From Akkermansia sp. (GTDB taxonomy: Bacteria > Verrucomicrobiota > Verrucomicrobiia > Verrucomicrobiales > Akkermansiaceae): a stretch of DNA of 64,000 bases. Every line of letters starts with the position of its first letter. Positions within the stretch are counted from its first letter, which is position 1. Of the stretch, positions 29,502 to 60,970 are shown one piece after another. The position numbers and the translations under genes are program-made. The DNA lies in assembly GCA_045641125.1 (NCBI GenBank), contig JAZUGI010000024.1, positions 1,487 to 65,486 on the forward strand. Reading direction: 5' to 3'. The notes beneath the pieces were generated by a model, which saw only the letters and a program-made list of their open reading frames with translations, was not told the origin of the DNA and ran no database searches.

Positions 29502-29762
29502 ATGGCTGATATCGAAAACAACTATCAAATCAAGTACAGTGAGAAGTGGGGCTCCTTCCTGCAGCAGGAGGCTTCCCGTCTCGACAAATACGTCACCGTG
29601 GAAACCGGGCTCTCCGGCAAGATGGTGGCCATGGACCAGTACGGCCTGCTCTCCTTCACGGAAAAGCAGAGCCGCATGCAGTCCACCCAGGTGGCGGAGG
29701 CGCCCACCGTGCGCCGCGTCATGTATCCCCATATCTACACCAAGGCGGTGGGGTTTAGTTAA
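29502..29762 (+). pseudogene. 5' fragment (84 native codons) of a host ORF split by prophage insertion
   Basis: It has GC-rich, host-like composition. The reading frame ...YTKAVG(F) enters the att core at 29745-29752 and then stops in phage DNA (..FS*). It continues in the same frame at 60959. A possible phage-capsid-like family is only a weak impression. Confidence 0.7.
29738..29756. repeat. attL (imperfect direct repeat, core GCGGTGGG)
   Basis: CACCAAGGCGGTGGGGTTT here versus CACTAATGCGGTGGGCTTC at 60952-60970. Identity is 15/19 with an identical 8-bp core. An abrupt composition change occurs right after it. Confidence 0.7.
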
Positions 29763-29836
29763 TATGACGGTAACGCACTGATATAGCGTAGTCTTTAAAG
29801 GCGTGAAATGCCGTGTTGCAATTTTTCTTGCAAAAT

Positions 29837-30367
29837 TCAGTCGCAATTTGCAGCCGCTTTAGCCGCTCTGCTCCTTTTTACCGCCTCACCAATCTTGCGG
29901 CGCGTTTCCTCCGAGCGTGTGTAAAGACCTTTCGTTCCCTTGTTCCAAGGCGTGCAACCTTGTTTCGCCTTACTCATCTTTTGACGAGTCTCCTTTGATT
30001 TCGGTCGCTTGATTCCTTTATTTGACTCACTGATTTTTTTCTTCGTTTCCTAGGAGCGGTGTTGTCCAAGGATTGTAACACCACCCCTCGCGCCGAGTGC
30101 AAGGTTCACGCAAAGTTTGCCATATCGATTTTTCGCGTCCTCGATAAATTCCTTTTCCAGCTTGTCTATCACTTCTTGATTGTGCGCTACCGCAAGAATT
30201 GACTTCTCACACTCATCGGGGTGTTGTTTGTAGATACGCTTCCATATTTTGCCCGAGCCTGTGTATTTCGTGTCGAGGCAAGGGCAAAGACACTTACTCG
30301 GCAACTTATGCTGACCGATATACACCCTGCCAGTCGGCACGTGAGTCATTTTGTAGATATAGAACAC
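29837..30367 (-). CDS. GIY-YIG homing-endonuclease-like protein with NUMOD3 repeats (1 in-frame TAG)
   Basis: N-terminal FYIYKMTHVPTGRVYIGQH (GIY-YIG). The track ORF stops at TAG 30050-30052. Read-through adds 70 aa with NUMOD3-type repeats (ETKKKISESNKG, SKETRQKMSKAKQG, SEETRRKIGEA) and ends at TGA 29837. Confidence 0.8.
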
Positions 30368-30474
30368 ACCGATATTTATCCACCTTTTCTCTGCATGTCA
30401 CAAAAAAGTCTTGCAATCTCCCGCGAGATGGTTCAAAAAAAGCAGCGGTTACTATCCACCCCCAATAATACGCT

Positions 30475-30762
30475 ATGGAATTACACATTGAAATCATTGC
30501 CCCGAACGGTGTACAAGTCAAGCAGATTTTCTCCAGCATTGACGTCACCGAAGATGAAGACGGTGAGCTTGAAAAGCTGACAAAGCAAGTTCAGGCTGGC
30601 GGAATCATTACGCTCTACACGCAAGATGGAGCACTAATGCTGAACACGTCCAAGCTCGTCTCTCTCGACGCTTTGAAAACACTCGAAGCCACCTTTAATG
30701 AAGATGGCGAAGAGGACGGAACGGAAGAAGTCTACACCGTGGACATTGTGATGAGCGTGTAG
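30475..30762 (+). CDS. hypothetical acidic protein (TAG-free, terminates at TAG)
   Basis: A 95-aa ORF. Reading through its TAG would run into antisense of the next gene, so TAG is probably a real stop here. Confidence 0.5.
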   Translation: MELHIEIIAPNGVQVKQIFSSIDVTEDEDGELEKLTKQVQAGGIITLYTQDGALMLNTSKLVSLDALKTLEATFNEDGEEDGTEEVYTVDIVMSV

Positions 30763-30774
30763 AGACACGGCTCG

Positions 30775-32418
30775 TCACTTCACTAGAAAGACAAGCTCGG
30801 CAAAGCTCACCGACTGCAAGATTGGAGCGCGGTCGATTTTGCTTTGTGCGGGTGCGTGGTCTTGCCAAAACACTTCGGCAAGTTCTTCCACCGTGTGTGT
30901 GGCGTGCGGCTCCTCATCGGCGTTCACGCATGCTGCATTGTCGTCTTGCGTCTGTGCTATCCAGTCTTGCCTGTAGCTCTGCGCGCATTGCTCGATGATG
31001 GTGGCAAGGTCTGCAACTTCCTTGTCGGTGTAGAAACTGTCGTAGCATTGAGCCACCCTGTAACCACGCCGCAAGAGTTCTTGCCTCACCGCCCGATAAA
31101 TGCAGCTCTCATGCAGAAAAATCTCGGACGAGCACGTCTTGCCTATCACGTCACGCATGCGGGTGAATATCTGCTCGATGATTGGTTCAGCCCTGCTGAT
31201 GAGCTCTGTCAGTTGTTCTCCGTCTAAGTCACCGAACTGTAGCTTGCTCTTTATGTGACCCTTTACTTCACCAGCCGTGCGGGCAAAATAGAAGCGCATT
31301 GCAAAGCGTTTGAAAAGTTGCCGCTGCTCGTTGTCCTAAAACTTCTCTGGACACATGAGCTGATACAAGTCTATGCTGTCATCTAACCACACGCCGTGAT
31401 TGAGGAAGTACTGAACACGGTAGATGGATGACTTGACGTCGTAGTGCGCGGGTGCTTCTCCCCATGCCGCCGTGAGCAGGCTCTCGCGTTCCTCCACGCG
31501 CATGCAGGCGAAGTGACTTGTCTCGCGTATGGACGTCTTGCTCACGTTCCCCTTCTATGACCGCTTCACCTTTACTCGGAACTTATATCCGTCATCCTCT
31601 GCAACGTACTTCTTCCACAGTTTGCCGTAGTGTTGAACAACGCGCTCGATGACGTCCTCATTGCTCAGATTTCCCACTTGTTGCGAGACGTATTGTGTGA
31701 TTGGAATGGAGCTGGGAACGCGCTTCCCACTAGGTCCATTTGAATACTGCTACATATGGGGGGGGTAGGGTAGAGAAAGAGAGAGAGACGAGGGTTGAGG
31801 GCTGACGCCCTCTTGATGGCTGACGCCATCTTGACACACACATGGAGCACAATGCGTGGACGCATAGGGAACGCTCGGCGCGAGTTCATTCGCGCTCACG
31901 ATTTTGCACTCCCTGGCAATGCTTGAAAGGTTGTCCATGACGTAGGGATTAACCCAGTACATTCTTGCATAGCCGCATTGTCCGTCATCGTGGAAGCAGT
32001 ACGACTCATCAGCAACCGCAAGCAAGCCCACCGATACGCCCTTTGCAATCAGATCCACAAGTGCGCGCTGCTTCATTAGCAAGGCGGCTTGCAGGGCAGT
32101 CTCGTTGGAGCTAAGCTGAAACGGTGGGAAATCGAAGGGGTCGTACAGGGTGTAGTCAAGTTCTACGGCGCGCACCTTGTTCAGGCAATGTTGGCCAAGC
32201 TGCAACAGGTTCGTCAGGTTGACCCTCCATTTGCGTCCAAATAGGCTCTACAGCGTTTGCAGGGTCACGGGGGTAGTTCTACCGTCAAATGAAAACAACG
32301 CGCTCCTGCCGAGTCCTACGCGCCTCAAACGGGCGTTTTCCTTGGAGTCTGCCATGTGCTGCTCCAATTCCAGCAGCGTCTCAAATAATCCAGTTTTGGG
32401 ATGGGGGTTCTTTATCAT
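30775..32418 (-). CDS. large hypothetical protein, 547 codons, 4 in-frame TAGs (possibly replication-associated; function not recognised)
   Basis: The track fragments 32205-31750, 31545-31336 and 31299-30775, plus an N-terminal extension from ATG 32418, are all in one frame. They are separated only by TAG at 32248, 31750, 31555 and 31336. There is no TAA or TGA for 548 codons in roughly mid-40s % GC DNA. Confidence 0.65.
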
Positions 32419-34470: not shown

Positions 34471-35148
34471 ATGGTCAATATCATTATCACAGATACGAAG
34501 GAATCTACACGCTTCCCAGGCAAGAATGACTTGCTCCTTTCCTATACGCTGTCATGGCTTGACGGAGAGTTGCGAACGCTGGATGGTGTAGATTGTCATG
34601 TGTGGTACGTCACGCGCAGAAACAGCCCTTTGAAGCCGATAGTCGTGCCGTTTGCAACACTTCACTGCATACAGTCACCTGATGATGAGACAAGCGACAC
34701 TCACAAGGCATTGTTTGCATGGTTATAGAATCATGTGATAACAAGCCCTGATGAAACGTGGGTTCAGGTGCAGCTCACTCAACCAGTCAGACGCTTTGGG
34801 TTGCTCAATGACGTACTCGCCGCAATAAATGATAGGAACTTAGTGCTCACCTTTGCGCGCTGGGATGACCTGTAGTGGCGTGAAGTAGCCGACAAGGGTA
34901 GTTTGCCATGGGAGTATCGCCAAGCGCAGGAAAAGCCCTCCAAACGCTATTACGACGGCGCGGTGGCAGCATGGCGTGGAGACGTGAGCAAGTTGTTCCG
35001 GCTCTACGATGAGGAAGTGCCTAAAACGTGGGTCGAGAACTACGCTGGACCAGTATGCGACATTGACAGTCCGTGGCAGTATTGCCCTGACTATATCGCC
35101 GGACTTGCAACGCTGGCAAAGAAGAACGAGCAAGAGGAGATTTTATGA
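34471..35148 (+). CDS. cytidylyltransferase-like protein (NeuA/KdsB CTP_transf_3 type), 2 in-frame TAGs
   Basis: Fragments 34471-34728 and 34903-35148 are joined in frame through TAGs at 34726 and 34873. The motifs IIITDTKESTRFPGKN, VQLTQPVRR and YRQAQEKPSKRYYDGAVAAW resemble the PARxGSKxxxxKN, QxTSPxR and RxQ..P..Y..NGA signatures. Confidence 0.6.
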
Positions 35149-35747
35149 CGATAGCGACAATTAAGACAGATGAAAAAATCATGCGTGTATGGCGGCGTGA
35201 GATAAAGCGCGCACTACCGCACGCAAAGATTGAAGTGATGGAGAGTGAGCCGCAAGACGTTTTGCAACTGCTCAAAGAATTGGAAGCCATGAACGATGAC
35301 GTACTCTACACCCTGCCAGTTCACGTCATTCACAGCGGAGACTTTTTGCAGCAGTTGGAGGAGCGAGATTTTATCGCGTTCAAAGAAACTGGCAAGCCCA
35401 ACATGACAACGAACTTCTTTGCGGTCACCAATGCGGGGTTGAAGAAAATCATCGAATTTGGAAACAGCCGCTATGAGTACGACTCCAAGATTGACGTAGA
35501 CATGAACTTGAGCAATCTCGTACTCAATGCACTTGGTGAACGTGTAGAGTTTAAGGTTGACAACAACGCATTCATCCACACGCTTGACGAGACGTGCAAA
35601 GGTCGCGGCATGATTGCCACCATGTGCGGAAGTGCCGTGATAATGCAGATTGTGAACTCTGCGAAATTGGACATGTACGACATTATTCCGCAGCTCATGG
35701 AGACAAAGGCACAGGCGCAGAGAAAAGTTGAATACAGAGACAAGTGA
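35145..35747 (+). CDS. hypothetical protein (TAG-free)
   Basis: A 200-aa ORF with ATGA overlap with the upstream gene. Confidence 0.5.
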   Translation: MTIATIKTDEKIMRVWRREIKRALPHAKIEVMESEPQDVLQLLKELEAMNDDVLYTLPVHVIHSGDFLQQLEERDFIAFKETGKPNMTTNFFAVTNAGLKKIIEFGNSRYEYDSKIDVDMNLSNLVLNALGERVEFKVDNNAFIHTLDETCKGRGMIATMCGSAVIMQIVNSAKLDMYDIIPQLMETKAQAQRKVEYRDK

Positions 35748-35752
35748 AGATT

Positions 35753-36337
35753 ATGAACAACGACCAAACAGGAAGAAAGTATAGAGGACAGTACCGCGAC
35801 AAGACAATCCTCATTGTTGGCAGCGGTAGTGATTTGGATGGTAGAGGCATGCAAGAGATTATCGACTCTGACCGATACGATATTGTCGCGCGTGTCAACA
35901 AAATGTACGGCGCACCGCAAGACGTGGGAACACGCGCTGACGTGTTGTTCACCCGATGGAACTAGTGGCTCGATAATGAAGACTGGTATAGTGAAGAAGT
36001 GTAGAAGAACGCGCAGGAGATTGTCATACTCAACCAGCATGTGGGATATTCTGCAAGTGAATATCAGTGGCTCTGTGCAAGAGTAGGACATGAGCAAGTG
36101 TCGGCGGGCGCACAGGCTGTGGACTTCTTCTTAAACAGAGGAGCAAAGCAAGTGGACATTATCGGCTTCGGCTGCAAGGATGGCGCGTTCCTTAAGGACA
36201 AAATCTACACAAAGGGAAGTGACAAAACAACGCCTCAACACCTAACCACAAAAGAAGGCAAAGATGAAAATCCCACCTACGATTGGCACAAAGAAAGAGA
36301 ATGGGAGATAAATCAGGCAAACGTGCATTTCCTTTAA
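35753..36337 (+). CDS. Rossmann-type glycosyl/sialyltransferase-like protein (GT42 / MAF-like), 2 in-frame TAGs
   Basis: Fragments are joined through TAGs at 35963 and 36002. TILIVGSGSDLD...YDIVARVNKMY...GTRADVLF...SAGAQAVDFFLNRGAKQVDIIGFG parallels the Cst-type VIIAGNGPSLK...FDVFRCNQFY...TSG...IYLSGIDF layout. Confidence 0.4.
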
Positions 36338-36353: not shown

Positions 36354-36665
36354 ATGGACAAGTCAAGTATAATATACAAAGTAATTCATCCCTCCATGTT
36401 ATGCAAGACAATGGAGAAGTCAATTAATGATATGGCAGTACAGGGGTGGACGCTCTTTCAAGTGGTAGACGCAGACACGTTCATCATGCAAATGAGTGAA
36501 AATAGAGTGAAAAACACCGAAAAATCGCCCAAAACTGGCATGGTGAGCAAAAATGGTAGTGTTGAGCAACCTGAAACAACCGTGAGGAAACCGATAGGAG
36601 GCCGAAGGAGAGCGTCGCAGGCATCCGATGGGTCATTGGGCAAAAAATCGGCGGTAGGGGGGTAA
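36354..36665 (+). CDS. hypothetical DUF4177-like protein with basic tail
   Basis: 103 aa with INDMAVQGWTLFQVV...FIMQ. It is TAG-free with a TAA stop. Confidence 0.4.
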   Translation: MDKSSIIYKVIHPSMLCKTMEKSINDMAVQGWTLFQVVDADTFIMQMSENRVKNTEKSPKTGMVSKNGSVEQPETTVRKPIGGRRRASQASDGSLGKKSAVGG

Positions 36666-36801: not shown

Positions 36802-37404
36802 ATGCAAGATAGTGAGATAGATTTAGACGAGATAGTTGCATAGGCTAATGCTCTAACGAGTGAGACTCCATCTGATTTACCGAGTCGTTATAAAGCGGTG
36901 GAGGACACGTTCTACAACTAGGCTAGGAGCATGCAGTAGTTGCTGACTGACACCATCGGCACAGACCATATACGAGACGTCCGCATGATGGCGGCTGCGT
37001 GCAAGGATATAATGAACAACTACAACGAGACATGTCGCCTGCGAAAGCTGGCCGAGATTGAGTGCGGGCGTGTTGTTCCAATGCGCGTGTTAGAACAGTA
37101 TCAGCGCGATATTCTGCCAGCCATCGCCAACGGTATTGACAACCTACGCATGGAAGTCACGAACATTCTACAGCCGCAAGAGCGCGCTTCATTTCAAACC
37201 GCGTGGAACGCTGCATATCCCAAGTTCGTCAGCATGCTGGGTGAGGCTGCTTCTAAGCTGCAAGGGTACATTGAAGAAGCCAAGCGAGAGGCAACAGGCA
37301 ACGCGCCGACAAAGAAAGAGCGCGCAAAAAACACCGCAATCTCCAAGGAGAAAAAAGCACAGTCCGCGAAGTTGCGATACAACCGTGAGAGAAACATGCG
37401 CTGA
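36802..37404 (+). CDS. putative small terminase subunit (by position), 3 in-frame TAGs
   Basis: ATG at 36802, TAGs at 36841, 36919 and 36937, and TGA at 37402 overlapping the terminase large-subunit ATG. The C-terminus is basic. Confidence 0.4.
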
Positions 37405-39137
37405 TGACTATGGACGTTGTTGATGACTTTGTGAGCCTACTGCAAAGAGACGTTTGTGATGACCCGATATAGTGGCTAGAGGACAACGTATACCTCGACT
37501 CCATCGTGTCTCCAAACGCGCCTGGTCCTTTATCTCTCGCAAATCAGCCGTGGGCATACCAAATCATCAAAGACTTTGTAGACCCCGCCATCCAACACGT
37601 GACACTATGCACAGGCGCGCAAACAGGAAAGTCGCTGCTTATGCAACTTGCTTATTTGCTCCTTTGCAAGTTTAATCCACAGCCGAGCATTATCGCTTTC
37701 CCCGATGACTCACTTGCAGAGCGGTTTATCAAGACCCGCCTTAAACCGATTATTCAATGCAATCCTGAATTTGCTGCAAAGCTACCCCCACCGCAAGTCA
37801 TCGGTCAGAAGAACATGCTTTTCGTAGAGGGTATGCCCACCTTCTACACAGGTTGTCGCTCACCCTAGAAGCTCTGCTCCATGCCCGCTGCTTATATCTT
37901 CTTGGATGAGGCTGCAAAGCTCGTTAAAACGAAGTCTACGGAAGCTCACCCATACAAGCTCCTTAGCGAACGAAACAAATCTTTCGCCCTGCATAAAATC
38001 ATCGAAGCGTCTACACCCGCAAGCGAGTCAGATCCATTTTGGGAGTCTCTGACAAACAGCTCATGGAGCAAGTTCAAAATGCCCTGTCCGTGGTGCGGTG
38101 AGCTGATGGAGTTTACCTTCGACAAAGAACACCTGAAATGGGAAGGCAACACGCAAGAGGAAGTGATGAAGTCAACCCGCATTGTCTGCACGAACTGCTG
38201 CTGCGAGATTGACGACAACATGCGCCGCGAGATGATGAAGCATGGCAAGTGGTACGACTCCAACACAGACCATGAGACAGGTCACACAGGGTATCACATC
38301 AACAGCCTTTATAGCTGCTGGACCACCATCGGTGAAGTGGCTTGGGAGTTCGTCAAAGCTAATCACTCCGTCCTGCGTGTAGAGGCTCTTCACAACTTTT
38401 TCAACTCTTGGCTTGCTATGCCGTGGACAGAGTACAAGACAAACGTCACAGAGGAAGATGTGAAGGCTCTGATTGACCTGAACGCCTACAAGAAACAACT
38501 GCCCGCCGATATGGTTTACCTTGCCATGGGATGTGACCCTGGACAGGCTCAAACTCACTACGTCGTTGCCGCCGTGTGTCAGGGTGGAGTCATCAAAGTG
38601 GTAGACTGGGGATAGCTTGCCAGCGTGTCATCAGCAAAGGGCAAGCAGGGCGTGGCATGGTTCCTTGAAAATCAGACGTACGAGTTCAACGGCAAGCCGT
38701 ACAAGGTCGATATTTGCTACTGTGACAGCGGCTATATGACTGGCACGGTCTACGATGAAGCGCGTTCTACCTACCCCGGACTGATTAACCCCACAAAGGG
38801 CAGCGGCGCAAGCGGAACATACGGTCGTTCGGCGGTAAAGACCAACGATTTGGACTTGTTCATCTACTCCGATTTTTCGCTCAAAGTGGAGCTCTACCAA
38901 AACATGTTCAACAACAAGGAAATCGTTTTGCCAAGAGACACAGACGCTGAACTCATTGCTGGACTAAGCGGGCAAATGATGGTTGTTGACCCCAACGGAA
39001 AACGTCATTGGCGCAAGGTAGACGGCGACCACTATGGAGACTGCTTGAAGCTCTGCGTGTTGTCATCGTGGGTTGCATGCGAAAACGATGACGTGCGAGA
39101 CAGGTTGCGCCCTGCAATAGAGTTCGCGTCAACCTAA
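37404..39137 (+). CDS. terminase large subunit, lambda GpA family, 3 in-frame TAGs
   Basis: Three track ORFs (37506-37868, 37881-38615, 38625-39137) and an N-terminal extension share one frame and are joined by TAGs at 37470, 37866 and 38613. It has Walker A CTGAQTGKS, GCRSP*KLCSMPAAYIFLDEA (Walker B region), the zinc motif CPWCG...CTNCCCE and a nuclease-domain D/E pattern. Confidence 0.85.
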
Positions 39138-40951: not shown

Positions 40952-41159
40952 GGAAATCATCATAGCTTTGCGGGATAATCCATCAGCCGCTATTTTGGCT
41001 CTATGCTTTGTCGGCCTTGGATATATGTACACAGATTTTAGAGACTATATTACGACTCAAAATCAGGCGCAGGCTGTATTGAACGAGCGTTTTATCGCCG
41101 CACTTGAAAAAATCAACGACCGCCTAAACGTGATAGAGACAAAAATCAAAAATCAATAA
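40938..41159 (+). CDS. small membrane protein
   Basis: 73 aa with one TM helix (AAILALCFVGLGYMY) and a coiled tail. Confidence 0.4.
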   Translation: MNGIKEIIIALRDNPSAAILALCFVGLGYMYTDFRDYITTQNQAQAVLNERFIAALEKINDRLNVIETKIKNQ

Positions 41160-41219
41160 AATATGACTGACGCAGTTTAGGTGACAGTTCAATTTCCCTT
41201 TTCAAACACAAATAGAAAA

Positions 41220-44839: not shown

Positions 44840-44841
44840 TC

Positions 44842-47707: not shown

Positions 47708-47720
47708 CTTTTAAACGAAC

Positions 47721-48266: not shown

Positions 48267-48290
48267 CGCCCCTACACAGGCAAGGTTCAG

Positions 48291-48316
48291 GCACACTCTG
48301 GCGAGTGTGCTTTTTC
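48291..48316 (+). terminator. rho-independent terminator
   Basis: GCACACTC-tggc-GAGTGTGC followed by TTTTT. Confidence 0.6.
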
Positions 48317-48345
48317 CTTTTTCGTTCCCATGGTAAGGTCAATTT

Positions 48346-48843: not shown

Positions 48844-49604
48844 ACAAGGAAGATTTTACACAGATAGGAACAAGCATTGAGTCGGTCGATTTGGCGGCAT
48901 TGTTGATTGCATTGGAATTTCCCCTCCTCTCCTGCAACACGGTAGAAGGCGTGAACCTCGATGGTGGAGCGACACCGCGCAAGACCATCACGTGGAAGTT
49001 CGGCAAGGTAAGTGAGAACGGCAAACACAGACTGGATGAAGTACGGCGCAAGTGGATATTGCCAAAAGAATTCACCTTGGACGATTACCAGTTGTCACGC
49101 CTTCTTGCCTAGAACTTGGGTATATTGAAGAACTTGTCCAAGCACCCTGCTTCCATCTTGTGGAACGACTTTGACGGTATCGGTCAGCTATCGAGCAGGG
49201 AGTGTTCCAAGAAGTGCAAAGAGCTACCAATATCGGCAAGGGGCTTCGGCGGCATTTGTGACACGTCTACAATCGCCCTAGCAATCACGCTTGGAGTCAT
49301 CCCTAGTGCCATGTATATGGACAATGGAAGATTGCATGTGAGCTTCACACGCACGGCAAACAGCGTAAACTTGGACGATGTGATACGCATGCTGAAAGAC
49401 CCCAACATGAGAAGGCGCGACAACACGAACGCGGTTGCAACTCTCATTTGCCAGTTGGACAACCGTGCAGAGATTTTAGCAAACATTGACGCCATGCGGA
49501 AAAAAATTCGCCTCATCGGTGATGGTGGAGAAACACAGGTCATGTTCGAGCAGGGCAAACTCAAAGAGAAAGACAAGGCAAAAATCAAAGACCTGTTCAG
49601 CTAA
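48840..49604 (+). CDS. hypothetical protein, 1 in-frame TAG
   Basis: The start has ATGA overlap with the upstream stop. TAG at 49110 joins 48840-49112 with 49116-49604. Confidence 0.55.
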
Positions 49605-51698: not shown

Positions 51699-52106
51699 AT
51701 GAATCGCAGTATTATCGAAAATGAAATGTGTCTCCCACACGGCGAGACGGAAACGCAAATGCGTCCAATAACCATCGGCACGCTTGCAATCTTGGAGAGA
51801 CTAGGCAACCCGCTTGTCGGCACGCTCATTGGTGTAGGCAACGCGCAGTTCACAGACTCGGTGGAGAACTTGCTTGAACTGTTTTACATTCACAGCGTGG
51901 ATGACTCGCAGCTCTACAGCATTGTTGACGCACTCTACACCGACCCTGACAGCGTAAAGAAGGACGCCGTATTGTGGGGCAAAGACATGAGCGTTGACGA
52001 GATTGCAGACAACTTGAACAAGCTGCTTCATCAGCAAGGACTAATTCAAGGCTCGATGGTGGAGACGGTGAAGAACAAGGCGCGCAAGTCACCAAAAAAA
52101 GTTTGA
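51699..52106 (+). CDS. hypothetical protein (TAG-free)
   Basis: 135 aa from ATG 51699 within track ORF 51585-52106. Confidence 0.5.
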   Translation: MNRSIIENEMCLPHGETETQMRPITIGTLAILERLGNPLVGTLIGVGNAQFTDSVENLLELFYIHSVDDSQLYSIVDALYTDPDSVKKDAVLWGKDMSVDEIADNLNKLLHQQGLIQGSMVETVKNKARKSPKKV

Positions 52107-52329: not shown

Positions 52330-52674
52330 ATGTCACAGAAACAGATAAAGACGTGGGGAAAGATTGGCGGCTTTGAGTCGTTGGCCAAATCTTGGAGTGA
52401 CCCGCCTACTGGATGGGCGTTTTGGCCGCTTTATCTCAAATGCGCCGACTATGCAGAAACGATTATCCACGGTGATGATTGCAGCGTCATGCATGACGCC
52501 TCATGCTTTAATGCAGACTTAGGAACGGAAGGTCACGGCGAACGCATTACTTTCTACGACTTCACGTTCTAGACAGGGCAACCGCAAGCAACGATGACCG
52601 TTCGGCGTGGCACGGCAAAGAAGAAGCCCGAAGAAACGTGTTGCCGATACCTAGATTGGAGGATTTTTAAATGA
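52330..52674 (+). CDS. hypothetical protein, 1 in-frame TAG
   Basis: Read-through of TAG 52570 adds 33 aa. The ORF then ends at a TGA that overlaps the next ATG (ATGA at 52671-52674). Confidence 0.55.
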
Positions 52675-53708
52675 GTACGATAATTGACCCCCTTGGCGAG
52701 ATAGGTGCAGATTATTTGAAGCCTATAAAGAAGTTCGGCAAGCTGCAATCTGACAGCGGAAGCGGTGTTGTCGGGCATTGGCAGAAACCGAGCGCGTCCT
52801 ACTTGGAAGAAAAAGGATGGGAACTTGGCGGTGACGCCGTGACCTACAACTACAAAGGCGGCGAAAGTGTGGTGAACGACATTCTCTCACGCTTCCCAGC
52901 CGAGCCCACACAGGCGGGCGGAAACGGCGTGCAAGTCACCTTGTCGCAGGATGGTGAACCGCTGGGGAATATCAGCGTCACGGTTTTGCAGGTGAAGATG
53001 AAGCCGCGCGGTGAGACACCGAAAGAAGAAGCAGACTTCGGCTCTGATGGTGAGGGCAACACCGACTATGATTTGTGGAGCATGAAGAAAGACAAGCAGC
53101 TCACCAATGACAAGTGGAAAATCGAGTGGGAGGACACGAAAAACTGGTTGCCCTTCTCGTACTACGGCAAACAACTCATCGACCCTTGGACAATATCTGC
53201 ATACAAGCTCCTTGTCGATGGTGACCACTTCCTTGGAGACGTCATCACCATGTCTGACGGTACTGGAGAAAAGACGCAAGAGCTACGAAAGTTTGAGCAG
53301 ACTAGCACTCACAGCGATATTCAAGGATGGGATATATCTCACATCAACCCCATCAGCAGAAACTCCTTGGCATACAACAGGCTTATGCAAGAAAGAGTCC
53401 TAGTCCTCACGCACAGTTGGAGTGAGTAGTGGGTAGTATCGGCAAAGAAGTTTGAGAAAATGCAAGACGAAGAGGACGAGCTGACTGGTACTCAAATGCA
53501 GAAATATGGGAACGAGATTGCAAAGGGAACAATCGTCATTTCAACGACTGGCAGGGGCAATGCAGATGGACCAGTCAAAGACGGAGAGCGCACGAGCAAG
53601 ACGTACACCATCACGCGCACCTTTACTCACAAAGAAGAATTCACATCACCGTCACAACTGCCAGTAGGACTGAAACTCAAAGTCCCTGACAAAGAGCCTA
53701 ATCCATAA
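52671..53708 (+). CDS. hypothetical tail protein, 1 in-frame TAG
   Basis: TAG at 53427 joins 52671-53429 with 53460-53708 in frame. Confidence 0.55.
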
Positions 53709-53737
53709 TTTCCCTTTCAACTCCTTTAGTAAGAAAA

Positions 53738-54748
53738 ATGTATACTTGGACACCTAACGAAACAATCACGGCTGCGAAGTTGAACGCCATGCAAAATCGT
53801 CCAAATATGGAGGACGTGGGCAAAGGTGGTATCAGCTTCGGTGGCATAGAGTCAAGCGCATTGTCACCGAGCGAAATCTGTGTTGCTACGTCTCCGATTT
53901 TCAATGGACCTGTCAAGCTTAGCATTACTGAACACGAAGTAGGCAATCTGAAGTTTGAGTACGACTAGGGAAGTGAGGCGTGGAAAGTGCGTTCAGGTCA
54001 TTCAGGTGTCACAGGACGTGGCACGTTCGGTGCCGAGGGTTACAGGTGGCTATGCACGTCTCAATTTCCAACGGATGGCAAAAAATACGTTTGGGATAGA
54101 ATAGACGTTGACTCATACGGTACGCCGACACGCATACGCACTTGTATCACCACACAGGGTGTCATGCCGACTTGTTTGTGGTAGCCGTACTGCGGAAAAT
54201 CCGGCGTGATTTGGCGTAGGCTGGCAACCGTTGAAGTGGACAATCAGCTTGCATGCGGTTCTTCATGTCCGCCCGCTTGGGCTTATAAAATCACCAACGA
54301 AAACAACGCTTTCGCACTACCTATCGCACGAAGCTGGGGATGGCACAATACCGACACCATACGCATTGACGAAGGCTTATTGAGTGACAGGGGCAGTTCA
54401 TCACATTGGTCACGCACCGTGGCAGGTGACTAGGGATTGTCAACGATGGTGCAAAATATCGGAGAGTTAGGCGGCACGTTCGTCTACGACACTTTCCAAT
54501 GCTCGTATGGTGATTGCAACCGCGTTGGAATAGGCATTGCCAGCGGTGTTGAGTTCTACGATGAAGAAACGTACCGCGCATGCTACAACCGCACCGAAAC
54601 ACGTCCTAAAGCTCGTACTGCAAAGGTGGATATAGGATGTGGAAAGTACCTGTTCATTCAGCCAATCAACCAGCTCCACCCGTGGCAATTCCTCGTTTAT
54701 GCCTCTTGTCACGCGCAGTCAGCATTCATCAATGGACCATCCCGCTGA
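53738..54748 (+). CDS. Cys/Trp-rich hypothetical tail or receptor-binding protein, 3 in-frame TAGs
   Basis: Four track ORFs (53738, 53987, 54206, 54437) share one frame and are joined by TAGs at 53966, 54182 and 54431. Confidence 0.6.
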
Positions 54749-54775: not shown

Positions 54776-55489
54776 ATGAAAAAACTTTTTTAGATATGGG
54801 AGGGCAGTATACCCGACAACGTGCAGAAAGAGATTGACGACCTACGAGACAAGGCAACGGCGGCGGGATATGAGTACCACCTGTACGACCTGTCAATGCT
54901 GCTGGCAGAGATACAGGACGAGAACTTGAAAGAGTCCTTGCGCCGCGCTAAGCGGTATCTCCCCAAATCAATGTTCGGCAGCATGCTTAGTGACTTCTTC
55001 CGCTATTGGTGCTTACAGGATGGTGGAGTCTATATGGACACAGACGTTCTCATCACCACCGACACGTTCCCCGCATTGCCTGACGCTGATGGTGTGTTCA
55101 CTTGCTCGGAGCAGACCGCAAGAAACAACCTGAACACATGCGTCACGGTCTGCAACGGTGACAAGGGGCGCATATACGCGCGATTTTTCACAGAGCTGGC
55201 AACAGACAGACTCAAAAAGACGTGGCTGGACTCTTTCGAGCAATGCAGGGCGAACGCTGGATGGCTTATTGAGCACAAGTGGTCGTTGATTTCGTACCTA
55301 GGTCCTGCGTTCGTGCGGCATTATCTGCCACACTTGTTCGGCGCAACTGGAGTGACCGTCCAGCGCATGCCCTACGAGCTATGCAGCTCACACGACCCGC
55401 GCTCTGCAATTTTCCATGCGGGTGACGGAACGTGGGTGAACGGCGGCAAGGGAAACCCCACGGCACAGCGCAAAATCTCGACTTTATGA
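54776..55489 (+). CDS. DXD-motif glycosyltransferase (Gly_transf_sug-like), 1 in-frame TAG
   Basis: MKKLF*IWEGS...GYEYHLYD...LSDFFRYWCLQDGGVYMDTDVLI. TAG at 54791 lies where the adjacent paralogue has Gln (VHQIWIGG). Confidence 0.75.
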
Positions 55490-56100
55490 AGCACCCTACA
55501 ACAGTTCATCAGATTTGGATCGGAGGCTCGGAAATGCCGCCCTTGGAAAAAACGTGCGTGGATAGCCTTAAAACGGCTTGCGAGCGTTTGGGGGTAGGGT
55601 ATACCCTTTGGAGCGAACAAACGCTTAGGAGGGCATATCCAGACGAAGGATTGTGGCTTCTCGCAGACAAGTTAGCCCCCACCGTGCGGAGAAGCGTGCT
55701 TTTGAGCGACTATTTCCGCATGATTGTGCTTAATCCTGGTGAGTGCTACCTAGATACCGATATGCTCTGCCACCACACACCCGCCATCAATTTCAAAGGC
55801 TCGTCATTGCTCTGTATGGGTGAATTCTGGGACAGGCACAAAGAGGGAACAGGCTTCATCGGCGTGCAAGACAAGTTCACAAAGTTGGACGCTTTGAAAC
55901 AGGCATGGCGTGAGCAGACGCAAAACTTGGACGAGTCGTGCGTTGACAATTTGCTTGCAGCCTATGGACCGGAGTTTTTGAGAAGCACGTTGCAGCGGCT
56001 TGGGATAAAGTCGAACATTCTACACCGCGACCAAATCACGCACGTTCAATGGAAGAACAAGGGCGCACTCATTCACATGGGAGCTGGTTCGTGGGTGTGA
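55486..56100 (+). CDS. DXD-motif glycosyltransferase paralogue (TAG-free)
   Basis: MKHPTTVHQIWIGG...GYTLWSE...LLSDYFRMIVLNPGECYLDTDMLC, with ATGA overlap with the upstream gene. Confidence 0.7.
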   Translation: MKHPTTVHQIWIGGSEMPPLEKTCVDSLKTACERLGVGYTLWSEQTLRRAYPDEGLWLLADKLAPTVRRSVLLSDYFRMIVLNPGECYLDTDMLCHHTPAINFKGSSLLCMGEFWDRHKEGTGFIGVQDKFTKLDALKQAWREQTQNLDESCVDNLLAAYGPEFLRSTLQRLGIKSNILHRDQITHVQWKNKGALIHMGAGSWV

Positions 56101-56446: not shown

Positions 56447-56764
56447 ATGACAAGGGAAAAATTGAAACAGGCGTGCGACAGCATGCGAGAGACTTTGCAA
56501 AACTGCTCACTTGAAGTGACAGAGTAGGAGATTGACGAGGTTCTGACCTATGCAGCGGAGCACAATGCGCGCAGGATTGGTGAAACGTACACGACAAGCT
56601 ATCCACCCTTGCTCACAGAGCTGCAAAACAGGTTAAGGAAGTTGGACGAGAGCGACTGCCCACCGCAAGTTGAAGAAGGTCTGCTCACTCATATCACGCT
56701 TGACACGTTAGAAGGTTATTTGCCGCTGGAGAATATCATCGGGTTTAGCTACAAAAGACCGTGA
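56447..56764 (+). CDS. hypothetical protein, 1 in-frame TAG
   Basis: 105 codons, with TAG at 56525 and a TGA stop. Confidence 0.45.
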
Positions 56765-56766
56765 GC

Positions 56767-57051
56767 ATGGACGAGTTTGAAACAGAGTGGGAAGAAATGG
56801 ACGCAAAGATACTCGCGTCTGACTTGTTCGATGAGGCAGAGAAACAAGCCCTGATTGAGTACCTAGACAAGCTCAACGTGAACACCTATGCAGACCTGAA
56901 AAAACTTGCCCCAACGTGCAAGGGCAAATTGTGGACAGATGAGCAGCGAGATTTTTTCACGTTGTTCTTCTCTAACTCTGAACTCGGTATCAGAAAGAAA
57001 TACGAGAGGAAAAGCAAGACCACAAACGAAGAAAAAAAAGAGGAGTCCTGA
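56767..57051 (+). CDS. hypothetical acidic protein (TAG-free)
   Basis: A 94-aa ORF, the last gene of the rightward block. Confidence 0.45.
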   Translation: MDEFETEWEEMDAKILASDLFDEAEKQALIEYLDKLNVNTYADLKKLAPTCKGKLWTDEQRDFFTLFFSNSELGIRKKYERKSKTTNEEKKEES

Positions 57052-57083: not shown

Positions 57084-57512
57084 CTAGTAGTCAGACGGTC
57101 GCATGATGGTGGTATGCTCACGCTTGCCCTCATCGTTCTCTGCGTCTGTAATAATCCACACGCGCTCACCGCCTATCTCCCACTCTGACAGAATACGCTC
57201 ACCGCTTTTAAGGGCGCGGAAGTTTGCCCACCAGTCAGACCCCTTTGTCAATCCCCAGTTGCAAAAGCGGTGTTCCTCAAGGGCGTGTGCAATGTCGTAG
57301 CGGTATTCTTCCATGCGCTCTGCCAGCTCTGCCGTGATAACCACCTGTCCCAGCGGGAAATCAACGTAGGTGAAATGCAAGCCATGCGTGGGCTCACGGT
57401 GGAAGAACTTGGCAATCTCACGGCGCAGATTAGGCATTTTCTCATCGTCTATGGGGAAGAGCCTAGACTTGCCATCCCCATAGGGATTTTTCAGTAGTAG
57501 CACGGTCATCAT
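57084..57512 (-). CDS. hypothetical early protein (TAG-free, terminates at TAG)
   Basis: 142 aa from MMTVLLLKNPYG. Stop codon is TAG at 57084-57086. Confidence 0.5.
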   Translation of the reverse strand: MMTVLLLKNPYGDGKSRLFPIDDEKMPNLRREIAKFFHREPTHGLHFTYVDFPLGQVVITAELAERMEEYRYDIAHALEEHRFCNWGLTKGSDWWANFRALKSGERILSEWEIGGERVWIITDAENDEGKREHTTIMRPSDY

Positions 57513-57516
57513 GGCT

Positions 57517-57792
57517 TTACTTGGCAAAGAGCGTTTTGACGTACTTGATGGACTCACGCCCGACCAGCATAGCAAGCGGTGAAGTGCGGTGTATACGCGC
57601 ACGGCGCAAGACGTTCTTGATGAACTGCTCGTTCTCTGCAACGAGCTTGAACCTATCTTCCGCAGGTGCTTTGAACAGCTCCGCGAGTGAGATTGTGTCT
57701 TGTATGGCAGCGTCAGTCACGCGCTCTACAATCTGTGACAGCGTGGCGACTTCAACCGTGTTGTTCTTTGTGTTGTTCTTCTTAGTTCTCAT
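57517..57792 (-). CDS. hypothetical early protein
   Basis: 91 aa from MRTKKNNTK, with a TAA stop. Confidence 0.45.
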   Translation of the reverse strand: MRTKKNNTKNNTVEVATLSQIVERVTDAAIQDTISLAELFKAPAEDRFKLVAENEQFIKNVLRRARIHRTSPLAMLVGRESIKYVKTLFAK

Positions 57793-57808
57793 ATTTGGGA
57801 TTTCCTTT

Positions 57809-57958
57809 CTATTTTTGTTTCTTTTTGCAGGGCGCGAGTGCAAGTTGTTTGTACTCTGTGAACGCCCTGATGAATGAGCCTAGTTGCAGGTGATATGCAT
57901 CTTTCCAAGTAATACCAGCTTCGCCACATGTTTTAGAGTGCGTCCACCCGTTGACCAT
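57809..57958 (-). CDS. small HTH-like protein (Cro/excisionase-like guess)
   Basis: 49 aa: MVNGWTHSKTCGEAGITWKDAYHLQLGSF.. It stops at TAG. An upstream ATG at 58006 would require reading a TAG. Confidence 0.3.
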   Translation of the reverse strand: MVNGWTHSKTCGEAGITWKDAYHLQLGSFIRAFTEYKQLALAPCKKKQK

Positions 57959-58042
57959 GCTGTTCTTCCAAAGTGCAAGCTATCTTCTGTACCCTTGCTC
58001 ACCCATCAGGGCGCGCACGCATTAACGCACGCGCTCACCCGT

Positions 58043-58285
58043 TCAACCACGTGGGAACTCCAACTCATACTGTCTACCACTTGGCTCACGCTGTACAAGA
58101 ATGAGCTTGTCTGGCAGTATGGTCATGTCAACCACTTCATCTGGATAAATGTCAATGCAGCAATATGCACCACCACCAGCATCAAGTGTGACGTATGGCA
58201 ATCCGTCCATAGTCTCGCTGTAGTCAATGCCACACACGTCGAACAGGTCTTTAATGAATTTGATAATTTCTTGTTCCTCTTGCAT
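58043..58285 (-). CDS. hypothetical early protein
   Basis: 80 aa from MQEEQEIIKF. It is the first gene of the leftward early operon. Confidence 0.45.
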   Translation of the reverse strand: MQEEQEIIKFIKDLFDVCGIDYSETMDGLPYVTLDAGGGAYCCIDIYPDEVVDMTILPDKLILVQREPSGRQYELEFPRG

Positions 58286-58508
58286 AGTCTTTTCTGTTTT
58301 GTTGTTGAAGCAGGGCAACACGTCTTTCGCCCTATGATGATACTTTACCTGGAATTATTCCAGTATGCAAGTCTTTTTTTCGTCGAAAGTCACTTTTTTT
58401 CAAGGAGTAACGACTGCCGAGACTGGGAAGCCGCATGGAATCGGCGTTTTATTTTTTATACGAAAAATAGGAAATTTCCAAATTTTGCTATTTCGGAGCA
58501 TTTTTTGC

Positions 58509-58537
58509 TTTACAAATTGGGTCGGGTGTGGTACAAT
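58509..58537 (+). promoter_or_regulatory. sigma70-type promoter for the 58547 gene
   Basis: TTTACA, a 17-nt spacer, then TACAAT preceded by TGg (extended -10). It lies 10 nt upstream of ATG 58547. Confidence 0.55.
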
Positions 58538-58546
58538 ATCGACCTT

Positions 58547-59074
58547 ATGAACGAAATCGAACACGACGCCGCGAGCGTCACTGAAAACGGGGTTGACCTG
58601 AACGCAGGGCAGCCGGAAGCAAAGCAAGTAACTAACAAGAAAAATAATTGGTACGCCGAATGGATAGACGATGAGTCCTGTAGGGATATCGACTGTATCT
58701 ACAACGCAATTAGGTACATTGAGGAAATTAACGAGATGGCCGCGCGAGGTGTTGATACAGAGGATGAAGAAATACGGGATGCGTTATATATGGCGATTAT
58801 GGATTACACCAAAGGAGCAAAAGACTGGAATCACGAAATATTGAAGGAAAAGTTGGGACTTGGGTTTATGAGTGTACACACTGACGGAGATTGGAAGTTC
58901 CAAGTCAGTGAGGTCAACCCAAAATACATAAGGTACGTCTACGACAAATTATGTGAGCAAGGACGTGCAAAGAATGCGCCTAGTGTATATACTAGAGAAG
59001 AGAACAGTGAGAGTTACACAGATGACGATGGCTATATCATTATCAAATACGAAGTAATAAAGTCGCTCAAATGA
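58547..59074 (+). CDS. hypothetical protein next to the integrase (TAG-free)
   Basis: 175 aa from MNEIEHDAAS within track ORF 57884-59074. The upstream part of that ORF is a shadow. Confidence 0.5.
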   Translation: MNEIEHDAASVTENGVDLNAGQPEAKQVTNKKNNWYAEWIDDESCRDIDCIYNAIRYIEEINEMAARGVDTEDEEIRDALYMAIMDYTKGAKDWNHEILKEKLGLGFMSVHTDGDWKFQVSEVNPKYIRYVYDKLCEQGRAKNAPSVYTREENSESYTDDDGYIIIKYEVIKSLK

Positions 59075-59103
59075 ATCATGGGGGCAAGGCAAAGCACAAT
59101 CAA

Positions 59104-59138
59104 GGGGAGCAGCCGCAAGGTGAACTCCCCTTTTTTTT
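59104..59138 (+). terminator. rho-independent terminator
   Basis: GGGGAG...CTCCCC stem followed by TTTTTTTT. Confidence 0.5.
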
Positions 59139-59155
59139 GCACCTGTGCGGCGCGT

Positions 59156-60760
59156 CTACTCTATCAAATCTTGCTTGCCTGTGAGCTGCTTTGCATTGCC
59201 ATCTTCCCCAGCCGCCGACACGTTTTCCAGCACCTGTGAGAAGAAGTCGGACATGATTGTGTTCACCCTTTGCTTGTCTTTCATCACTTCCTGTGCAAGC
59301 CGCAACGCCTCATCATTTGCGCCCGTGTCAACGGTGCTGCTCACGTCACTCTTAAAGCTGTCCACCGAACTATATCCCATGCTCTCCAAGGTCTTTTTAA
59401 TCACCAGCTCCCTGGCTATCCTCTCGGCTTCTCGCTGTGTCTTGCTCTGCGTCTCTTTGTTCAGCCGTGCAAGGTAGTCTCGCCGCTGATTTTCTTCGTG
59501 TAGATACCGCGCGCCGATATACTGCTCCATATACTCAAGCATGCCCGCCGTGGACTTTTGGGGGTCAAGGTCAAACTTTAGGTAGTGCCGCTCCTCTACG
59601 GTGCGCGGCGAGTGTCCAACGAGATAATTAATCATCGACTCGTTAAAGCCACCTTGCGTGAGAACTGTGATGGCGGTGGCTCGGAGAGAGTGTGGGCTAT
59701 ACGCAAAGAAGCGGCGATTGAACTTTGTGTCGATAGCCGCAAACAATCCCAAGTGCTTTATGCAAGACAGGAGGAAATTTCGCACATTCTGCATAGCCGA
59801 CTTGTTCAGGTTTTGAGGCTTCACTCCACAGCGGCGCAAAGGGAACAGGAGCGGTGAGTCTCCATCTTTTGGCTGGCATAGAGTCTTCACTTCTGTCAGC
59901 AGCTCATGCATTTTGTCCGTGATATAAAGGCGCGCGTGTATCTGCTTCTTAGCAGTCTTTTTGAAAATCTTGGTGATTACCCGCCGCTCCATATCCACTT
60001 CTTCCCAGCGCAAGCCTACCACGTCTCCGATTCGCCACCCTGTAACCATCATCAGGTAAACGATGGCATAACGCTGGAAAATGCGTTCGGGTGTCATTGT
60101 GTACCCGCGCCCGTTGACGTCTTTCTTGTCCTTAGCCTTGGCAAGAATGAACTGGAGATCTGACTGGGAGAAGATACTGCGGCGATTGCCATGCTGCTCC
60201 TCTCGCAGCTCCTTAAATCTAACGCCGCTGAACGGATTGTAGTATTTCAGCGCAGAGCCTCTGAACTCCTTTAGCGCGCCGCGCAGTACCACGTCCACGC
60301 GGTTGAGAATGTCGCAGAACGTGTTGTACGAGTACGGCTCCAATGACGCTGCAAAATCTTCCACAAGCTTGTCGTCTAGCTCGTGCAGCTTCATCCCCTT
60401 GCGGTGTTCTTTCAGGTAGTCAACAAAGAGCTGGAAGCGGCGTGTCTCCTGCTTTATAACGTCCTCATTCTTGCTGATACAGATGGCAGATTGAGGCAAC
60501 GACTCTAGGTATCGCACGGCGTCCTTGGCTTCGTTGATTGCACCATGCAACACTTCAATCTCATCGGTGGCAAGCTCGATTTTGGCGTACTCTTTTTTCA
60601 GCTCCTTTATCCGCGCCGCTTGCTCTCGTTTGGTGGGCTTCGGTGTCTCACTCTTCACTTGCTTGCGACCGTAGGGGTACTTCATGCCCTGCTTCACCTT
60701 GGAGTAGTCCTTGTAGATGATGACGTAGGCATTCTTTTCGGCATTGTAGGTGATTTTCAT
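59156..60760 (-). CDS. int: tyrosine recombinase / phage integrase (TAG-free, terminates at TAG)
   Basis: 534 aa from MKITYNAEKNAY. The catalytic-domain motifs are TGWRIGDVVGLRWEEV (Arg I), HSLRATAIT (H-x-x-R) and LVGHSPRTVEERHY (His...Tyr). The upstream 221 aa of the 755-aa track ORF cross attR and are not real. Confidence 0.9.
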   Translation of the reverse strand: MKITYNAEKNAYVIIYKDYSKVKQGMKYPYGRKQVKSETPKPTKREQAARIKELKKEYAKIELATDEIEVLHGAINEAKDAVRYLESLPQSAICISKNEDVIKQETRRFQLFVDYLKEHRKGMKLHELDDKLVEDFAASLEPYSYNTFCDILNRVDVVLRGALKEFRGSALKYYNPFSGVRFKELREEQHGNRRSIFSQSDLQFILAKAKDKKDVNGRGYTMTPERIFQRYAIVYLMMVTGWRIGDVVGLRWEEVDMERRVITKIFKKTAKKQIHARLYITDKMHELLTEVKTLCQPKDGDSPLLFPLRRCGVKPQNLNKSAMQNVRNFLLSCIKHLGLFAAIDTKFNRRFFAYSPHSLRATAITVLTQGGFNESMINYLVGHSPRTVEERHYLKFDLDPQKSTAGMLEYMEQYIGARYLHEENQRRDYLARLNKETQSKTQREAERIARELVIKKTLESMGYSSVDSFKSDVSSTVDTGANDEALRLAQEVMKDKQRVNTIMSDFFSQVLENVSAAGEDGNAKQLTGKQDLIE

Positions 60761-60951
60761 GGCTGGTTGTTTTGGGGGTTGTGACCAGCGTAGCACGGCA
60801 CTCGGCGGCGTGCAAGCCTTCGTTGCAAAAAAGTTGCAATTTTTTGTCGGGAAATGGGTCATTTTTTGCAATTTTGGCTCATACGCCCTCCTGCTCATAT
60901 CTCCACAACACATAGAAAAACAAGGCATTACGAGGCTATAAAAAACAAATG

Positions 60952-60970
60952 CACTAATGCGGTGGGCTTC
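60952..60970. repeat. attR (imperfect direct repeat, core GCGGTGGG)
   Basis: CACTAATGCGGTGGGCTTC. Composition returns to GC-rich immediately to the right. Confidence 0.7.

Follow-up and report, generated by a model that had tools for sequence, protein, structure and literature searches.

Prophages that use TAG as a sense codon while residing in bacteria with the standard genetic code are already published. Those described by Borges et al. (bioRxiv 10.1101/2021.08.26.457843) are about 24 kb long, reside in standard-code Prevotella and Oscillospiraceae and have integrases free of in-frame TAG; a suppressor tRNA is detectable in just 40% of the genomes that are recoded at TAG, and the evolutionary model proposed there starts from a low guanine-plus-cytosine (GC) content. 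Joining that class is a phage of the genus Akkermansia, integrated in the stretch of DNA analysed here (64,000 nucleotides of an Akkermansia sp. genome, GenBank assembly GCA_045641125.1, contig JAZUGI010000024.1; hereafter the window). With a probability of roughly 0.9, we read it as a temperate tailed phage of 31.2 kb, integrated in a standard-code Akkermansia, in which TAG specifies glutamine outside the lysogeny module and termination inside it.

Compared by published description, the Garnet/Topaz prophages of Borges et al. and the window phage are alike in being small and temperate, with standard-code hosts and TAG as glutamine in most genes. In both, gene calls under code 11 fragment, GC content rises at the prophage borders and the integrase, which may itself stop at TAG, has no in-frame TAG; many of the Garnet/Topaz prophages likewise have no detectable suppressor tRNA. 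They differ in host, Bacteroidetes/Firmicutes as against Akkermansia (Verrucomicrobiota), and in integration site, which is beside a tRNA gene in Garnet/Topaz and in a protein-coding gene in the window, where a 31-kb phage of 49% GC in a host of 63% GC stands against the low-GC start of the published model. Every sequence-level hallmark of the class is found here other than the optional suppressor tRNA; new are the host phylum, the higher GC content, the protein-coding integration target and the completeness of a bounded element without a tRNA. Recoded temperate phages are thereby extended to Akkermansia, a gut genus of medical interest, and recoding to a moderately GC-rich phage. Neither Akkermansia nor Verrucomicrobiota is named in Borges et al. 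A search of the full-text literature turned up no paper in which recoded phages are connected to Akkermansia or Verrucomicrobia. The published version of the prophage study is reportedly that in Nat Microbiol (2022).

Reassignment of a stop codon in a standard-code host, with recoded structural genes, is also a feature of the crAss-like and Lak phages. These reassign TAG or TGA in their late genes, are about 100–550 kb long and mostly virulent, and often encode suppressor tRNAs, release factors or aminoacyl-tRNA synthetases, whereas the window phage is temperate and 31 kb long, its early genes are recoded and no such factor is found in it. In Escherichia coli, UAG is read as glutamine in supE (glnV44) strains through a tRNA-Gln with the anticodon CUA, and in strains deficient in release factor 1 (RF1) through near-cognate tRNA-Gln; these are laboratory mutations of the host, whereas in the present case a natural phage genome brings the requirement for suppression with it.

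The closest phage in the INPHARED collection searched is Moulinsart (ON453896), a prophage induced from A. muciniphila, to which the window phage is distantly related (large terminase, TerL, 38% identical over 93% of the query; portal 37%). Moulinsart, at 31.3 kb, has the same packaging, head and tail gene order, a terminal integrase and the same host genus. It differs in using the standard code, with uninterrupted annotated genes and about 3 of 17 structural-region open reading frames (ORFs) ending in TAG, in its GC content of 56%, and in being without the glycosylation-like cassette described below. No close relative is present in IMG/VR, where the best TerL match is 45% identical.

In-frame TAG codons and the genes that carry them

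Outside its lysogeny module the prophage is recoded at TAG. When TAG is read as sense, close-packed plus-strand ORFs run over 32.5–57 kb, with a few more genes on the minus strand, and 28 of the 33 early, head and tail genes contain in-frame TAGs, 61 in all (62 with the longest possible starts) in about 8,160–8,320 codons, depending on start-codon choice. The same 33 genes contain no in-frame TAA or TGA and terminate at TAA (16 genes) or TGA (17), never at TAG. Since their other two frames hold between 67 and 304 each of TAA and TGA, chance does not explain an interruption by TAG only. Under code 11, a greedy set of non-overlapping ORFs comprises 61 ORFs with a median of 108 residues, 3 of them of at least 300; with TAG as sense it comprises 42 ORFs with a median of 178 residues, 10 of them of at least 300. 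Freeing TGA or TAA instead brings a smaller gain and the loss of strand coherence in the same test. Standard gene callers shatter the prophage, so that surveys of Akkermansia prophages will under-annotate similar elements.

Homology continues over the TAGs. Pfam domains match as single stretches across them in TerL, portal, protease, HNH endonuclease and tape measure, and so do alignments to Moulinsart and to metagenome contigs (L numbers below) with terminases 55–86% identical, including the neighbouring genes. Three closer genomes come from other samples and were assembled independently with other assemblers: L104 (ERZ27247234), L105 (ERZ1767599) and L106 (SRR6425796), the last aligning like L105. 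Against the 96.6% identical L105, differences fall at codon positions 3, 1 and 2 in the proportion 139/45/23, corresponding to 125 synonymous and 53 non-synonymous codon changes (TAG counted as glutamine), and this third-position bias indicates that the TAG-containing frames are under purifying selection. Of the TAG sites compared, L104 keeps 13 of 18 and L105 keeps 12 of 16.

A decaying, defective prophage with accumulated nonsense mutations would leave a different record. All 61 interruptions are TAG, with not one TAA, TGA or frameshift, TAG terminates none of the 33 genes, the TAGs persist in genomes 89–97% identical from other samples, substitutions are third-position-biased, and independently recoded relatives (L003, L107) exist. 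That no endolysin or suppressor tRNA is recognised, and that family matches are wanting for most proteins, would suit decay, to which we nevertheless assign a negligible chance.

Comparison of sequence contexts finds no shared motif around the TAGs. Of the 61 in-frame TAGs, 17 directly follow a C, against 34 of 365 CAG or CAA codons (chi-square p = 4e-4), and CTAG is enriched; the base after it differs only weakly (p = 0.05).

The recurrence of the same TAGs when different samples are assembled by megahit, SPAdes or Logan bears on a technical origin, whether by C-to-T miscalls that turn CAG into TAG on modified phage DNA or, for the element as a whole, by a chimeric join of phage and Akkermansia contigs. 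A single transition does separate TAG from CAG, several glycosyltransferase-like proteins could in principle modify DNA, and C is over-represented before TAG. However, with no common motif, TAG makes up just about 14% of the glutamine-type codons outside the lysogeny module, and miscalls account neither for the TAG-free stops of the recoded genes nor for the TAG-free lysogeny module; a chimera is contradicted by flanks that rebuild an intact gene and by the existence of empty sites. An artefact of either kind is very improbable.

An earlier, sequence-only reading of the window had put the number of TAGs at about 58 in about 27 genes; the pattern stands, and the count becomes 61–62 in 28. Its statements that every interruption is TAG, with no TAA, TGA or frameshift, and that all recoded genes end in TAA or TGA hold across the 33 genes. 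The three TAGs that it placed in each of the terminase and the portal are all present, as are the eleven of the tape measure; both GIY-YIG genes do gain NUMOD3 repeats beyond a TAG, and the lambda-like head is borne out by matches to the GpA terminase, lambda portal and ClpP-like protease families. The protease TAG at 41460 exists, with a possible second one at 41178. Homologues and Pfam domains do not break off at the TAGs, comparable numbers of in-frame TAA or TGA do not turn up and the TAGs are not peculiar to one assembly, three of the outcomes by which it had proposed to be refuted, and the comparison of codes that it suggested favours TAG over TGA or TAA as the sense codon. The present analysis goes beyond that reading in three respects: glutamine as the amino acid, TAG as a stop within the lysogeny module of the prophage itself, and the lack of a suppressor tRNA throughout the element.

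The genes concerned are as follows, in window coordinates.

29837–30367, minus strand: GIY-YIG/NUMOD3 homing-endonuclease-like gene; TAG at 30052 (residue 106), with the NUMOD3 match (residues 121–159) beyond it
30775–32418, minus strand: early gene of 547 residues with no assigned function; four in-frame TAGs, three of them spanned by the alignment to L002
33376–33843, plus strand: HNH endonuclease; two TAGs, the HNH_3 match (residues 60–102) running over that at residue 100
34471–36337, plus strand: glycosylation-like cassette of three genes; two TAGs in the first, none in the middle one, two in the third
36802–37404, plus strand: putative small terminase, named by position only and conserved in eight relatives; three in-frame TAGs
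37404–39137, plus strand: large terminase TerL (GpA type), 577 residues; TAGs at 37470, 37866 and 38613
39452–40951, plus strand: portal (lambda family), 499 residues; TAGs at 39836, 39950 and 40670
41163–42296, plus strand: ClpP-like prohead protease, 377 residues; TAGs at 41178 and 41460
42373–43293, plus strand: probable major capsid protein, from its position and from identities between 92% and 27% with its syntenic counterparts in relatives and Moulinsart; TAG at 42754
43859–44440, minus strand: second GIY-YIG/NUMOD3 gene; two TAGs, the GIY-YIG match (residues 3–81) running over that at residue 25, and NUMOD3 repeats
44504–49604, plus strand: seven head-completion and tail genes; 13 in-frame TAGs in total, over which homologues in L003, L006 and L007 align
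49639–51678, plus strand: tape measure protein, 679 residues; 11 in-frame TAGs, the TMP_3 match (residues 122–281) running over TAG sites
52330–54748, plus strand: three distal tail genes with no assigned function; five TAGs, conserved in L104–L106, where the genes are 89–97% identical
54776–56100, plus strand: two paralogous DXD glycosyltransferase-like genes; one TAG and none; Gly_transf_sug E = 6e-6 and 0.02

The packaging and head genes stand in the lambda-like order, with a large terminase of the GpA type, then a portal of the lambda family and then a prohead protease of the ClpP/S49 type. In TerL, the GpA_ATPase match (residues 39–283) and the GpA_nuclease match (residues 294–546), together PF05876 and PF20454, both run over TAGs; the Phage_portal_2 match (PF05136, residues 54–341) covers two TAGs of the portal, and the CLP_protease match (PF00574, residues 33–196) covers residue 100 of the protease, whose real start may be downstream of its other TAG, at 41178. 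The probable major capsid gene has no Pfam match, and the 547-residue early gene matches nothing in Pfam, PHROG or NCBIfam. Outside the lysogeny module the TAG-free ORFs include 36354–36665, 51699–52106 and 56761–57051.

The homing-endonuclease-like genes (two GIY-YIG/NUMOD3, one HNH) carry in-frame TAGs, so these selfish genes share the code of the phage. Their number and position differ among relatives, with an extra HNH_3 gene in L105 and L106.

Five genes in total are glycosylation-like, namely the cassette at 34471–36337 and the pair at 54776–56100. The first gene of the cassette has an RFPGKN motif, as in cytidylyltransferases. The AlphaFold2 model of the second (35145–35747; residues 1–140, mean predicted confidence, pLDDT, about 85) matches GT-A glycosyltransferases, among them the PBCV-1 capsid glycosyltransferase (PDB 2p72, TM-score 0.52), and the third is like GT29 sialyltransferases (Glyco_transf_29, E = 2.6e-4). 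Homologues of the cassette are present in L002, L006 and L107 and partially in L012 and L024, with none in Moulinsart or L011. Together the five genes suggest that the virion, the cell surface or DNA is glycosylated.

TAG as glutamine codon and as stop

In the TAG-free relatives L002, L006 and L007, the residue aligned to a TAG of the window is glutamine at 27 of 76 sites, against a glutamine background of 3.5% (binomial p = 2e-20). Among genomes 89–97% identical TAG is mostly kept, and where it changes it does so chiefly to or from CAG and CAA, in both directions; exchange mainly with these two codons is seen in L003, L104 and L105. Seven TAGs are common to the window and the 84% identical L003. 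Single sites follow the same pattern: the TAG at residue 40 of the putative small terminase aligns to glutamine in all eight relatives, that at residue 155 of TerL in the 15 closest homologues, and that at residue 49 of the gene at 43372 to an invariant glutamine in relatives, while residue 129 of the portal is glutamine in all nine TAG-free or standard-code relatives, Moulinsart included, and TAG in L003. The enrichment together with the exchange with CAG and CAA makes glutamine, as in code 15, the best-supported meaning of TAG.

At the right end of the prophage is a lysogeny module (57084–60760) of five genes, in which 1,034 codons include no TAG (P is about 4e-4 when reckoned by the rate per codon and 3e-3 when reckoned by the proportion of glutamine-type codons that are TAG).

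57084–57512, minus strand: gene of 142 residues; no in-frame TAG, ends in TAG
57517–57792, minus strand; 58043–58321, minus strand; 58547–59074, plus strand: three TAG-free genes, the calls agreeing with those in L104–L106
59156–60760, minus strand: tyrosine integrase, 534 residues (Phage_integrase E = 1.4e-14); no in-frame TAG, stop codon TAG at 59158–59156

The integrase stop is conserved as TAG in L104, L105 and L106, whose integrases are also free of in-frame TAG, and reading through it would add 68 residues that resemble the translation of non-coding DNA. The 142-residue gene ends in PSDY followed by TAG, where its orthologues in L104–L106 have PSDY followed by TAA at the same position, and behind its stop is a terminator with a 12-bp stem (57064–57037). 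The conserved integrase stop, the TAG/TAA swap between orthologues and the terminator argue that TAG is a genuine stop in the lysogeny module; by this comparison TAG acts as a stop there (in two of the five genes) and as a glutamine codon elsewhere.

Two database copies of the integrase, P0107 (596 residues) and P0111 (587), are about 55–60 residues longer than the 534-residue form. These are probably gene calls with TAG as sense that read past the genuine stop, and such over-long calls illustrate how neither code on its own annotates the element correctly.

Host, integration site and relatives

The element is truly integrated: it has att repeats and an integrase, its interrupted target gene can be put back together, and the population includes empty sites.

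29502–29756, plus strand: split host gene of the Phage_capsid_2 family, 5' portion; the integration target
29745–29756: attL core GCGGTGGGGTTT
29757–60958, no strand: prophage body, 31,202 bp, with a GC content of 49.2% (flanks 62.8%); its limits are given by the att cores and the split host gene
29816–29836, plus strand: two TTGCAA(W)3 repeats adjoining attL
60823–60874: TTGCAA(W)3 repeats near attR, between the integrase start and the core
60959–60970: attR core GCGGTGGGCTTC
60971–61627, plus strand: split host gene of the Phage_capsid_2 family, 3' portion

Joining 29502–29756 to 60971–61627 gives an intact protein of 303 residues that matches PF19821 over its full length (1–293 of 293, E = 4e-73). 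The uninterrupted gene occurs in five metagenome contigs, L018–L022 (3666–4577), which represent empty sites: their QueA is identical, and the same hexapeptide-transferase gene follows the target. Comparison of attL, attR and the attB of these five contigs yields an imperfect core of 12 bp, GCGGTGGG(G/C)TT(T/C). In the composition scan the GC fraction is about 0.63 on either side and drops to 0.49 over about 29.75–60.96 kb, with 62.8% in the flanks (1–29744 and 60971–64000). The sequence-only reading had described an integrated element of about 31 kb with clear att sites; integration and size hold, whereas the core is only 12 bp and imperfect and the boundaries are slightly corrected. Of seven occurrences of TTGCAA(W)3 between 29 and 62 kb, six are no more than about 110 bp away from an att core, and these repeats are probably arm-type sites of the integrase.

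L104 has the same phage–host junction as the window. There (9134–9907) the same phage lies beside the same fragment of the capsid-family gene, with different host genes next to it (DUF3089, YkuD, FolD), so the target gene occurs in more than one genomic context. In the window the target stands alone among host genes (gltX, queA, a PEGA lipoprotein gene and the hexapeptide-transferase gene), with no other phage genes near, and it has no similarity to the capsid gene of the phage itself. The insertion is situated about 1 kb downstream of gltX (glutamyl-tRNA synthetase type) and queA (queuosine synthesis), both acting on tRNA (26453–28811). This proximity is probably a coincidence, since it is the att core within the capsid-family gene that determines the site.

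The host appears, from 30 kb of flank and its genus assignment, to be an uncultured Akkermansia sp. that uses the standard code. Its QueA, TypA and IlvA–Maf fusion fall in clusters of at least 90% identity whose named members are proteins of Akkermansia sp. metagenome-assembled genomes (MAGs). The 26 confident host genes (8,445 codons) end in TGA (14), TAA (9) or TAG (3), and a fourth TAG stop, at 22901–22903, belongs to a small gene. Their codons contain no in-frame TAG against about 63 expected at the phage rate, the host ORFs having been called under the standard code and hence being free of in-frame TAG by construction. For two of the TAG-ending genes, extension to the next stop adds just 8–10 codons.

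If the host, or a whole community member, itself decoded TAG as sense, there would be no mismatch of codes. The host evidence is confined to the flanks of the window, which leaves some room for this reading, but the zero in-frame count, the three or four genes ending in TAG, two of them with such short extensions, and the phage's own lysogeny genes stopping at TAG make it most improbable. The earlier claims for the host agree with these results: its genes have no in-frame TAG as called, the TAG stops at 16193, 16701, 22901 and 29255 are all present, and a code of the element different from that of its host is supported by TAG-spanning homology together with the stops in the flank.

One host ORF of 696 residues (24253–26343, minus strand) is a threonine dehydratase (PALP and Thr_dehydrat_C) fused to a Maf nucleotide pyrophosphatase domain, and it is kept as one gene in related Akkermansia contigs.

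Within the terminase clade, the recoded members are the window phage with L104–L106, L003 (TerL 84% identical; 17 TAGs in 11 genes) and L107 (74%; 26 TAGs in 19 genes). No in-frame TAG is present in L108 (86%), L002 (82%), L006 (73%) or L109 (63%), whose genes end in TAG in 1 of 7, 0 of 21, 0 of 26 and 0 of 13 cases, or in L007 (77%), which has about one TAG-ending ORF by our own calls. Moulinsart and L011, more distant Akkermansia phages of 56% GC, use the standard code with TAG stops. Ordered by TerL identity, recoded and TAG-free phages alternate (TAG-free at 86%, 82% and 73%, recoded at 84% and 74%), and this interleaving agrees with the published route, on which a stop codon is first depleted and then reassigned and close lineages often differ by such a change. 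Some of the relatives are in MAG bins labelled Bacteroidales or Rikenellaceae, host labels that are unreliable because these relatives are phage-sized contigs.

Decoding of TAG

In the picture that we favour, the tyrosine integrase has inserted the phage into the Phage_capsid_2-family host gene. Following the model of Borges et al., ordinary host translation would yield full-length products only from the lysogeny genes and the few TAG-free genes, early and structural gene products would be truncated at TAG, and lytic growth would need a switch from termination at TAG to insertion of glutamine. As a prophage of only 31 kb bounded by att sites, in which the absence of a suppressor tRNA is for that reason unusually well supported, the element offers a compact case for how recoded phages without such a tRNA get TAG decoded, and for whether the difference in code gates the choice between lysis and lysogeny.

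Several points weigh against this picture. The early region is recoded too, including the minus-strand 547-residue gene with its four TAGs, so the switch would have to precede almost every lytic gene, which simple early/late timing does not account for. Several TAG sites have no glutamine in relatives, and the conserved methionine aligned to capsid residue 128 means that glutamine is not proven to be the exclusive meaning. No endolysin or lysis gene is recognised, and no Amidase_3 homologue is present anywhere in the window; L002, L006, L107, L108 and L109 have an Amidase_3 gene and a small gene where the prophage has a 212-bp gap between portal and protease (40952–41162), so this copy could be lysis-defective. 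The standard code of the host is read from the flank and the genus assignment, and a decoding apparatus, searched for in the element, was not found, translation of the lytic genes being predicted from the sequence.

Run with its defaults, ARAGORN detects no tRNA in the window. At very relaxed settings, hundreds of false positives include no tRNA with a CUA anticodon inside the prophage, the only two CUA candidates lying in the host flank. An Rfam scan at E <= 1 returns nothing, our own scans for hairpins with a CUA anticodon, taken by themselves or together with a T-arm, find nothing tRNA-like, and no tRNA is rebuilt at the reconstructed attP junction. Low-threshold hits at 22925–23002 and 60754–60830 were rejected as ordinary hairpins or sequences with no fold, with insignificant z-scores. 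The sampled stretches of nine relatives' contigs (L002, L003, L006–L008, L104–L107) also contain no tRNA. Among proteins, essentially every ORF was compared with Pfam, PHROGs and NCBIfam, with no match to a release factor, an aminoacyl-tRNA synthetase or a tRNA-modifying enzyme; twenty proteins have no PHROG match at all. The gene at 35145–35747, which is TAG-free both here and in the independently recoded L107, was considered as a factor acting before the switch and dropped, its model having a GT-A glycosyltransferase fold.

In our judgement, the decoder would most plausibly be a tRNA-Gln(CUA) that the host or a co-resident element provides in trans, next a non-canonical suppressor tRNA of the phage that the searches missed, and third an antagonism of RF1 combined with near-cognate reading by the host tRNA-Gln(CUG). 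The stops of all recoded genes, TAA and TGA, are readable by release factor 2 (RF2), which is compatible with the first and third of these.

Read-through might also occur without a clean reassignment to glutamine, either with RF1 antagonised and near-cognate tRNAs (mainly Gln, some Tyr, Lys and Trp) inserting residues, or with the TAGs as leaky attenuators that give mixed products. The eleven TAGs of the tape measure would demand a high efficiency at each site, no candidate RF1 antagonist is identified, and the enrichment of glutamine and the TAG/CAG/CAA exchange fit a dedicated glutamine decoder equally well. On the other side are the lack of a tRNA(CUA) in the fully bounded element and the sampled parts of the relatives' contigs, recoded genes that end solely in RF2-readable codons, the near-absence of TAG stops in the TAG-free L002, L006, L109 and L108, the TAG sites aligned to conserved residues other than glutamine, and the near-cognate insertion of glutamine at UAG in RF1-deficient E. 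coli. We hold read-through of this kind to be unlikely, and clean reassignment to glutamine remains the preferred reading.

A switch of code by a protein is a tentative and rather doubtful proposal, in which one of nine TAG-free ORFs with no assigned function would disable or sequester RF1, leaving the host tRNA-Gln(CUG) to read UAG and RF2 to terminate at TAA and TGA. It would explain the RF2-readable stops in every recoded gene, the near-absence of TAG stops in the closest TAG-free relatives and the lack of a tRNA in the sampled contigs L002, L003, L006–L008 and L104–L109 (TerL 55–86% identical), and it would simultaneously shut off or extend the lysogeny genes that stop at TAG.

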